A stretch of DNA of 64,000 bases from Eledone cirrhosa (Eukaryota). The notes under the pieces are model-generated. The model did no database searches and was not told where the DNA came from. It was given only the letters and a program-made list of their open reading frames with translations. Numbering within the stretch: the first letter of the stretch is position 1; every line of letters begins with the position of its first letter. The DNA lies in NCBI GenBank assembly GCA_964016885.1, contig OZ024740.1:164672001-164736000 (forward strand), read 5' to 3'. This document shows, in pieces, positions 1,602-3,765 of this stretch. Position numbers and translations under genes: made by a program.

Positions 1602-2429
1602 TAAATGATTTGAACATAACATTGATTATTGTGTAATTTATATTCCTGCTCTGTAAAACACCTGATGTTCTTGAGCTATTTCACTTACTGGTAATAAGAT
1701 AGTAATAAATTACTGACCTTTCCTGTTTATAGTTGTTTATAGTATATACATAACTATAAATAGTATCATTATTATTATACACACACACACACACACACAC
1801 ACACATATATATATATATACATATATATATATATATATATATATATATATATATATATATATATATATATATATATATATATATATAAGCAAGTATTGTA
1901 CCGAGAAAAATATAAACGTCGGCGTGAAAGAGAATAGGAATTTATATGCTGACTACAATATATATTGTTCAATCAATACTTAATATATTCATCACACTTC
2001 ATTAGAAAGCCTATAATAGTGTAAGTGACTATTCACTACGCGGTAGTAAGTAGTTTTCTTGTTTAAGCATTCATTCCTTATATATAAACAAAACCTTACC
2101 TACCTTCACATATACACACACACACACACACACACACACACACACACACACATATATATATATATATATATATATATATATATATATATATATATATATA
2201 TATATATATATATATATATATATATATATATATATTCAGGTTTGAGGTTCACCACTGTATAGAGCTGGTCTATTCCGTATGGTCAATCGTAATGCAATAA
2301 TATAGAGAGTACTCAACGTAAAGCAGTTCAACCGTCTTTGTTTTTGTAGTTGGTGGTGCTATTACGGAGTTAAATATTATAATGAAATGACAGGAGGCTG
2401 GATTTGTGTAAATCCTTGAAAGGTTTATT

Positions 2430-2487
2430 ATACTATGATCATTTCAATGACCGGGTTCCGTATGAATCCGGTGATATCATCAGGTAT
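2430..2487 (-). ncRNA. Type I HHR (unit 1)
   Basis: rc: atac-CTGATGA-tatc-accgg...ccggt-catt-GAAA-TGATCA-TA-gtat-AATAAA. AUA site; palindromic helix III. Confidence 0.85.
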
Positions 2488-2894
2488 TCGAAATATAATA
2501 CGTGAATGTAATAGGTAAAATCCATGGGGCTGAAAATCGAGACCCGAGGGCGACCGCTATTCTGTTCCTTCAACCTCAGCCGGTCGCCCTGGAGTGACGT
2601 GGCTAAATTTTATAGTCGAATTGTGGTTAGATATATTCAGTCCCATGTCGCTGTTGATTATTACATTTTGAAGTGCTCAACATTTCAGGAGCGTTATTTA
2701 TTCAGGTTTGAGGTTCACACTGTATAGAGCTGGTCTATTCCGTATGGTCAATCGTAATGCAATAATATAGAGAGTACTCAACGTAAAGCAGTTCAAACGT
2801 CTTTGTTTTTGTAGTTGGTGGTGCTATTACGGAGTTAAATATTATAATGAAATGACAGGAGGCTGGATTTGTGTAAATCCTTGAAAGGTTTATT

Positions 2895-2952
2895 ATACTA
2901 TGATCATTTCAATGACCGGGTTCCGTATGAATCCGGTGATATCATCAGGTAT
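2895..2952 (-). ncRNA. Type I HHR (unit 2)
   Basis: Same motif, 465 nt from the first copy. Confidence 0.85.
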
Positions 2953-3489
2953 TCGAAATATAATACGTGAATGTAATAGGTAAAATCCATGGGGCTGAAA
3001 ATCGAGACCCGAGGGCGACCGCTATTCTGTTCCTTCAACCTCAGCCGGTCGCCCTGGAGTGACGTGGCTAAATTTTATAGTCGAATTGTGATTAGATATA
3101 TTCAGTCCCATGCCGCTGTTGATTATTACATTTTGAAGTAACTCTGTAATAGCACCACCAACTACAAAAACAAAGACGGTTGAACTGCTTTACGTTGAGT
3201 ACTCTCTATATTATTGCATTACGATTGACCATACGGAATAGACCAGCTCTATACAGTGGTGAACCTCAAACCTGAATAAATAACGCTCCTGAAATGTTGA
3301 GCACTTCAAAATGTAATAATCAACAGCGGCATGGGACTGAATATATCTAACCACAATTCGACTATAAAATTTAGCCACCTCACTCCAGGGCGACCGGCTG
3401 AGGTTGAAGGAACAGAATAGCGGTCGCCCTCGGGTCTCGATTTTCAGCCCCATGGATTTTACCTATTACATTCACGTATTATATTTCGA

Positions 3490-3547
3490 ATACCTGATGA
3501 TATCACCGGATTCATACGGAACCCGGTCATTGAAATGATCATAGTAT
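3490..3547 (+). ncRNA. Type I HHR (inverted unit)
   Basis: atac-CTGATGA(3494-3500)...GAAA(3532)-TGATC-ATA-gtat, with AATAAA at 3548. Confidence 0.85.
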
Positions 3548-3765
3548 AATAAACCTTTCAAGGATTTACACAAATCCAGCCTCCTGTCATTTCATTATAT
3601 TATATTATATATATATATATATATATATATATATATATATATATATATATATATATATATATATATATATATATAATTGAAGGATATACATTGTTACAGG
3701 CATGCATCGTAACATACATATAAACACGTACATAGGTTTATCTCCAAATATATGTATACACTCTT

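Follow-up and report, generated by a model that had tools for sequence, protein, structure and literature searches.

Two groups of described elements are closest to the locus studied here, the non-LTR retrozymes of metazoans and the Penelope-like elements (PLEs). Retrozymes of this type are non-coding tandems with one type I hammerhead ribozyme per unit and a G+C content below 50%, and they co-exist with PLEs. Their operational definition of 2026 comprises two consecutive units, each with a complete type I hammerhead, and a fold below −5 kcal/mol (bioRxiv 10.64898/2026.07.22.740005). Units of 51–972 bp are reported in that preprint, and of 150–450 bp in a study of 2020 (PMC7229834), which describes highly self-paired circles and a canonical hammerhead with a 6-bp helix I, a 4-bp helix II and a loop-loop contact. 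The retrozymes of mussel and axolotl depart from this canon, and the axolotl one, whose helix II has a U.U pair at its base, is capable of cleavage and performs better in dimeric form (PMC7229834). Predicted retrozyme dimers from Xenopus were cleaved in vitro in only one case of nine (bioRxiv 10.64898/2026.07.22.740005). The preprint argues that animal retrozymes derive, as non-autonomous elements, from PLE terminal repeats; the PLE origin and mobilisation of animal retrozymes is a published hypothesis, based on co-occurrence and repeat similarity.

PLE insertions consist of a tandem and an inverted 5'-truncated copy placed head to head, with a tail at one end and a microsatellite as the target (PMC8557442, PMC3846280), and pLTR sequences suffice for insertion in trans (PMC3846280). 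For the purified Poseidon element it was demonstrated that the tail is the stretch between two reverse-transcription start sites, that AT-rich DNA is cut and extended on both strands, and that insertion in vitro proceeds without need for hammerhead cleavage, unprocessed RNA being the main template (PMC11167929). Hammerheads of PLE terminal repeats have a 4-bp helix I, a long helix II and a palindromic helix III; they are thought to act as dimers and cleave weakly in vitro, opposite-strand pairs of them 100–700 bp apart are known, and it was suggested in 2014 that PLE copies of more than unit length have a circular template (PMC4209133). Non-autonomous head-to-tail PLE derivatives, such as Chlamys MRC1, are described in green algae (PMC8557442). 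The comparison also drew on the review PMC7761336.

The locus occupies positions 2235–3599 of the window, by which we mean the whole 64-kb stretch of Eledone cirrhosa DNA that was analysed. The insertion comprises 1365 bases, all from one repeat unit, and is bordered by a (CA)n(TA)n tract whose last position is 2234 and by a (TA)n tract from about 3600 onward. The coordinates of its features are given in Table 1.

Table 1. Features of the insertion and of its flanks, in window positions.
Feature	Positions	Strand	Description
Left target flank	2114–2234		(CA)n then (TA)n microsatellite; target-site duplication not discernible
Arm A	2235–3139	−	905 nt, 1.94 head-to-tail units; 5' end 3139, tailed 3' end about 2235; 26 nt less than two turns
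Unit 1	2235–2700	−	complete 466-nt non-coding unit
Unit 2	2701–3139	−	439 nt, 5'-truncated; private differences: one deleted C and two substitutions
143-nt "tail"	2235–2377	−	at the 3' end of arm A, missing from the 3' end of arm B; contains GAGTRCT
pLTR-like core	2378–2616	−	239 nt, from junction 2616 to the tail-less end; includes the hammerhead; preceded by other shared sequence in X1 and X2
Post-tail segment	2617–2700	−	84 nt, comes after the tail in the tandem; joint 2700/2235 also bridged by one X7 contig
Type I hammerhead, unit 1	2430–2487	−	predicted cut between 2434 and 2433
Type I hammerhead, unit 2	2895–2952	−	identical to the unit 1 motif; predicted cut between 2899 and 2898
Predicted cut-to-cut monomer	2434–2898	−	465 nt
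G+C-rich hairpin	2541–2597	−	upstream of the hammerhead; z −2.6 in its 80-nt window
Arm B	3139–3599	+	461-nt inverted copy, head to head with arm A (one base shared), crosses the unit junction
Arm B ends	3139–3599	+	start 5 nt inside the tail; end 56 nt behind the cut, where the tail-less site lies; two private substitutions
Type I hammerhead, arm B	3490–3547	+	identical; predicted cut between 3543 and 3544
Right target flank	3600–3675		short irregular AT stretch, then (TA)n
GAGTRCT	2315–2321, 59067–59073, 50543–50549, 37718–37724, 10593–10599 (approximate)	−	found by eye

The initial annotation had described a 465-nt tandem with one hammerhead per unit and two minus-strand hammerheads 465 nt apart. 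This was borne out by Tandem Repeats Finder, which reports a period of 465 with 2.0 copies and 98% matches for 2229–3139, and by the pattern scan for hammerheads. The full unit is 466 nt long and the second unit is incomplete; the cut sites are 465 nt apart, not 466, because unit 2 has one C deleted. The inverted arms A and B are 98–99% complementary. On the ribozyme strand they run outward from 3139, forming a head-to-head joint with both 3' ends facing (TA)n. They start at 2674 and 2372 in unit coordinates, with no mirror symmetry about the joint, and arm B equals one turn minus 5 nt. The hammerhead pattern scan revealed no further copies of the unit elsewhere in the window.

The copies within the insertion differ at six sites, of which three are in unit 2, one in unit 1 and two in arm B. 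Each difference is private to a single copy and none is common to two, the divergence among the three copies being about 0.4% per base. This marks the insertion as young and copied from one template sequence, in agreement with the earlier view that the copies are near-identical. It is very improbable that the structure is an assembly artefact, that is, a fold-back chimera or a mis-joined repeat. Tandem and inverted PLE structures do trouble assemblies (PMC8557442), and the locus has long microsatellites as flanks and no spanning read, but the arms are not mirror images of each other, each copy carries private differences, and the same pattern is observed at three other loci of the window with unrelated sequences. 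Moreover, among the public contigs considered below, one from X7 bridges the tandem joint and one from X1 contains another opposite-strand joint of the same family.

Complete type I hammerhead cores were found at 2483 (−), 2948 (−) and 3494 (+), and each predicted cut falls between AUA and GUAU. Helix I has 4 bp (AUAC/GUAU), the CUGAUGA and GAAA core is intact in all three copies, the triplet is AUA, helix II is long with U.U at its base, and helix III is the 8-nt palindrome AUGAUCAU. Judged by its sequence, the motif thus has the make-up that defines a type I hammerhead, namely the core CUGANGA ... GAAA ... NUH and three helices with helix I open. The same pattern occurs 18 times in the window (one motif per 3.5 kb, about a dozen families), and helix III is perfectly palindromic in 13 of these 18 motifs. 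In 100 resampled windows used as a control, the mean was 0.12 motifs and the maximum 2, none of them palindromic. The helix I arms vary in sequence among the window motifs and stay complementary, complementarity being built into the pattern. Many of the window hammerheads lack the G10.1–C11.1 pair. Rfam matched none of them, with no matches at the gathering score in the window and none at E up to 10 in 2235–3603, and hence the ribozyme call rests on the core pattern and on the covariation of stem I between window families.

The local hammerhead fold has a predicted energy of −15.2 kcal/mol. The predicted active fold is not the lowest-energy one: in the predicted circle the pair probabilities are at least 0.86 for helix II and 0.004 for helix I. 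The energy cost in arm A is 14 kcal/mol for the dimeric active fold versus 23 kcal/mol for two monomeric folds. Cleavage by the hammerhead is plausible from these models, and it is reasonably likely that it would proceed in a dimer formed via the 8-nt palindrome.

The locus shares with metazoan non-LTR retrozymes the non-coding tandem, the single type I hammerhead per unit, the G+C content below 50% and the co-existing PLEs, and by its DNA sequence it fits the 2026 operational definition. The unit of 466 nt is within the range of the preprint and slightly above that of the 2020 study. No reading frames of at least 100 amino acids were found in the region, ARAGORN detected no tRNA genes, and the G+C content of the unit is 40%; by these measures and by the PLE profile described below, the unit appears non-coding, without LTR, PBS or PPT. 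The hammerhead does not follow the retrozyme canon (PMC7229834), which does not exclude membership, given that the retrozymes of mussel and axolotl depart from it as well. It is rather of the kind seen in PLEs, having the 4-bp helix I, the long helix II and a small palindromic helix III suited to dimers; in contrast to PLE hammerheads (PMC4209133), it lacks the G10.1–C11.1 pair and has U.U at the base of helix II, as does axolotl HHR_Amex2. Compared with endonuclease-bearing PLE insertions (PMC8557442, PMC3846280, PMC11167929), the locus shares the head-to-head inverted copy, the one-ended tail, the (TA)n or AT-rich target, the lack of a visible target-site duplication and the hammerhead in the repeat. 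It differs in that those elements have a frame between the repeats and a tail of 30–40 bp, whereas the locus has no frame and a tail of 143 nt, and its direct repeats are adjacent, with only 227 nt between the pLTR-like cores. The Chlamys elements such as MRC1 differ in being green-algal and mostly without canonical hammerheads (PMC8557442).

The circle expected from the unit does not appear highly self-paired as are the circles of the 2020 retrozymes (PMC7229834). It is predicted to be 54% paired at −92.9 kcal/mol, with z −1.8 against 60 shuffles. The antisense strand of the circle is more structured (z −2.7). The most stable local fold of the unit, the best of 24 windows of 80 nt, is the G+C-rich hairpin, and this hairpin fits by eye neither a SECIS nor a kink-turn. 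For another, small hairpin, at 2400–2415, there is no compensatory change among the variants in the contigs of public runs. Release of a monomer by the locus itself, for which the initial annotation invoked minus-strand transcription, is less easy than that annotation suggested and is doubtful unless there is a promoter within 2960–3139, because a read-through minus-strand transcript is predicted to form some 450 bp of duplex in which one hammerhead is hidden.

The insertion shows the Penelope-like pattern: a tandem with an inverted 5'-truncated copy placed head to head, one tailed end and, as the target, a microsatellite. Arm A extends for 200 nt behind the cut and arm B for 56 nt, the excess of arm A thus being 143 nt. 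Of the same-family pairs of head-to-head hammerheads that were examined in the window, all four have one longer arm, the excess being 143 nt here, 80 nt at 10623–10991, 101 nt at 18691–19685 and 24 nt at 38065–38304. The initial annotation had the inverted copy starting about 140 nt into the unit and described the copy as circularly permuted. On the ribozyme strand, the point in question (equivalent to 2378) proved to be where the copy has its 3' end, not its start, and the unit junction lies within the 461 nt of the copy. Since the asymmetry of tailed and tail-less ends matches the fixed ends of the PLE pattern in four pairs of four, the offset is best read as a tail-less start site, not as free circular permutation. 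A single linear RNA copied by classical twin priming was considered and rejected, as in unit coordinates no arm has a 3' end that abuts the other arm's 5' start.

The motif GAGTRCT is located inside the tail, 79–120 nt behind the cut site, at five hammerhead loci that are dissimilar in other respects. Of 19 hammerhead hits, 6 have it within the 200 nt behind them (the 466-nt unit accounts for two of these), while about 3.5% is expected per hit, although the motif was spotted by eye and the enrichment is therefore post hoc. We consider GAGTRCT a candidate recognition signal for the PLE enzyme.

Several other loci of the window deserve description. The tandem at 18691–19685 is unrelated to the 466-nt unit: its hammerhead cores (19055 and 19533, plus strand) recur with a 478-nt period, and the arm inverted head to head against it carries the 101 extra nucleotides at its 3' end; this tandem is older, as its copies are only about 91% alike. 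At 10623–10991, head-to-head hammerheads (10758 minus, 10856 plus) have a very long helix II, and the longer arm ends in the 80-nt tail; the central 22-nt unit of this locus also forms a small tandem array at 9613–9802. The 240-bp palindromic pair at 38065–38304 (38145 minus, 38224 plus) adjoins two different hammerheads at 37807–37953 (37833 minus, with a three-pair helix II, and 37919 plus). Another hammerhead family is represented by two copies, 29288–29946 and 42076–42617, that are 84% identical, have a 6-nt palindromic helix III and lie among satellite-like repeats, rich in TA/TACG, that include small inverted pieces. Inspection by eye showed 1199–1633 to be an imperfect palindrome of about 430 bp whose centre is near 1415, and a dispersed short repeat lies at 5147–5304. 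The window is rich in microsatellites; together with the dispersed repeat, this would fit an octopus-like cephalopod as the host.

A template of periodic structure, circular or multimeric, had been proposed from the outset, and both unit junctions do recur inside the insertion. The joint 2617/2616 is present three times, with two occurrences in arm A and one in arm B (it recurs at 3082/3081 and 3360/3361), and the joint 2700/2235 is present twice. Because a plain transcript with a repeat, a spacer and a repeat has a single 2617/2616 joint, the template was periodic, being either a closed monomer copied for more than one turn or an uncleaved transcript of a tandem donor. Of the two, we hold the closed circle to be somewhat the less probable. 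The three cut sites are intact with zero added bases, which is compatible with the circle and the multimer alike. The lengths of arm A, two turns minus 26 nt, and of arm B, one turn minus 5 nt, would suit a circle. Little weight can be put on them: arms of the 478-nt locus cover 1.56 and 0.53 turns, so that near-whole turns are found in two arms of four, an observation made post hoc; the predicted circle is weakly paired; and the start of arm B could also have been set by an endonuclease cutting at the tail boundary.

The recurrence of the joint also bears on whether the locus is a one-off by-product of a coding PLE, with a single deletion and with copies made by template jumps or by duplication, at the locus itself or at one donor locus, of a unit that never spread. 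Internal deletions, solo pLTRs and tandem or inverted by-products are common in PLEs (PMC3846280), Poseidon inserts in vitro independently of hammerhead cleavage with unprocessed RNA as the main template (PMC11167929), the window contains no further copy of the unit, and the deletion joint is unseen elsewhere among the pieces listed. However, a transcript of the pLTR-spacer-pLTR type has this joint once, while here it is found in each arm, two times in arm A, and six private differences are expected from one template copied at one time, not from stepwise duplication. A by-product of this kind therefore seems rather improbable to us.

Of 24 public runs listed, 14, from 11 studies, contain part of the unit and 7 contain at least half of its words. 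No RNA runs are listed among the 24, and they have no bearing on expression. Four runs were aligned to the unit, all as contigs, which cannot reveal RNA ends, strand or circles. We denote the public data sets by X1, X2, X3 and X7. In X1, from which the window itself may derive, 1922 contigs match the unit at 85% or more. Three contigs of X2 (2235–2435, 2429–2500 and 2471–2616) and one of X3 (2235–2591) do not differ from unit 1. Summed depth in X1 has its maximum at the hammerhead and drops strongly on 2619–2700, where X2 and X3 have no cover, but contig depth cannot rank the parts of the unit and a gap in cover is no proof, so that no argument is based on either. One X7 contig (depth 2.2) spans the joint 2700/2235 with 73 and 78 letters. 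One X1 contig joins opposite strands at unit positions 2276 and 2451, which is another inverted joint in the family of the 466-nt unit.

The X2 contig that reaches 2616 has 146 nt without difference from unit 1 followed by 151 loose letters. Six X1 contigs have a loose end at the same position, and it agrees with that of X2 in 28 of 30 letters. The sequence preceding the core at 2616 is therefore shared by two studies and missing from the 466-nt unit. Given that these contigs continue past 2616 into shared sequence, the unit is probably a longer element that underwent internal deletion; related subfamilies that differ only upstream of 2616 could be counted against this reading. A second breakpoint at 2649 was considered for a further loose end and rejected: the loose letters are similar to those of the unit itself and sit on contigs having 4 differences in 36 nt, and they were assigned to subfamily divergence. 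Outside the locus, the joint 2617/2616 was not found among the 25 of 1954 pieces and the 16 of 117 loose ends listed, and a family formed by spreading of the short unit is thus a candidate only. Exact-pattern scans for the 466-nt family gave no matches in metagenome contigs, viral contigs or prokaryote genomes, and unit words are absent from the supplements of PMC8557442 and PMC13282606.

Translated by hand on the ribozyme strand, the loose end at 2616 reads F-x-L/S-S, with a stop 6 nt before the junction. In the PLE proteins with a terminal C-x-H (105 of 151), F, L and S are the commonest residues at +4, +6 and +7, and the commonest remaining length is 9. In the 30 displayed letters there is hence a hint of the end of a PLE protein. 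The initial annotation had named fixed ends attached to a coding PLE as the observation that would speak against a retrozyme; the attachment at 2616 to further shared sequence is seen, whereas its coding nature is only hinted at. We incline towards a coding parent, of which these 30 letters are what is known.

The sequence upstream of 2616 might instead belong to a larger version of the circle, the unit then being a variant in size of a longer retrozyme without any coding part, one that spreads via abundant circular RNA and has no coding parent; this reading comes closest to that of the initial annotation. Variation of this sort has precedents: among retrozyme monomers, indel variants have been described (225 and 245 bp in a coral; PMC7229834), and family lengths of 51–972 bp are reported (bioRxiv 10.64898/2026.07.22.740005). 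The second tandem family of the window, with its 478-nt period, the arms A and B ending 26 and 5 nt short of whole turns, and the U.U pair shared with an axolotl retrozyme that cleaves (PMC7229834) fit it as well. We nevertheless consider it unlikely, as the circle is weakly paired (less structured than its antisense strand) where described retrozyme circles are highly self-paired (PMC7229834), the hammerhead has the PLE form, the loose end appears to read like the end of a PLE protein, and the arms of the 478-nt locus are not whole turns.

We found no coding remnant of a PLE on 2235–3603, where a profile built from 151 PLE proteins scores at most −2.9 bits, and no RT and GIY-YIG reading frame between pLTRs, so the insertion is not an autonomous PLE. 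The 84-nt segment and the sequence upstream of the hammerhead at 59199 were rejected as remnants of a GIY-YIG protein end, with scores of 1.6 and 2.5 bits versus 2.5 bits in 285 shuffled frames. The same PLE profile scores 241 and 157 bits on fragments 21181–22051 and 60584–61824. Because it matches these two fragments, the window shows that possible PLE helpers exist in the genome. The first fragment is a 5'-truncated coding PLE on the minus strand, frameshifted near its end, and is flanked within 20410–22700 by inverted arms (20410–21085 and 22044–22700) that are 92% identical; a loose scan revealed no hammerhead in this element. The second is a broken coding fragment, also on the minus strand, with a GIY-YIG match under the Pfam cut-off. 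Just right of the insertion, at 3766–4654, there are broken minus-strand frames without Pfam match, which we take to resemble the 3' end of a LINE.

The reading we favour, with moderate confidence, is that the locus is a young non-autonomous, internally deleted derivative of PLE type, inserted by PLE enzymes from a periodic RNA. A longer hammerhead-bearing PLE-type element would have lost its interior while keeping the repeat, the tail and the 84-nt segment, the latter rejoined to the start of the repeat. An RNA carrying the unit in periodic form would then have been copied in trans by a PLE reverse transcriptase with a GIY-YIG endonuclease, and such action of the PLE machinery in trans is highly probable. 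The enzyme would cut the (TA)n tract and prime cDNA synthesis on both target ends, with arm A primed from the tailed start site and arm B from the tail-less one, and the two 5'-truncated products would be joined head to head. A further possibility, to which we assign a low probability, is that a retrozyme is seen here at its birth: a coding PLE would have lost its whole frame just behind the stop codon, the hammerheads would release a 466-nt RNA circle, and the enzyme of the parent would copy this circle from its two usual start sites.

Searches for octopus or cephalopod hammerheads, Penelope and retrozymes returned no paper on the 466-nt family; subscription journals are mostly outside such searches, and the supplements of PMC7229834 and of the preprint may list the family. 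The words "tail" and "head-to-head" do not occur in the main text of the preprint (bioRxiv 10.64898/2026.07.22.740005), nor do "tail" and "inverted" in that of the 2020 retrozyme paper (PMC7229834), and the accessible text of the 2026 octopus repeat annotation (PMC13282606) has no occurrence of "ribozyme".

The locus adds a member to an already known class, that of retrozymes and PLE derivatives. It does not show a new mechanism and, as the window has 18 such hammerheads, is one of very many such loci in the genome. What it offers is a retrozyme-like tandem with the marks of PLE insertion (the tail, the head-to-head inversion and the TA target) together with a candidate deletion joint to a longer parent, and because these coincide, it is a convenient young test case. 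Should the locus indeed be a retrozyme at birth, the lengths of its arms, whole turns minus 5 and minus 26 nt, would be the trace left in the genome by a reverse transcriptase that went round a closed circle and halted close to where it had begun, and the identity of parent and derivative over the sequence they share would make the circular-template model for PLEs and retrozymes testable on genome sequence only, by arm lengths modulo 466.
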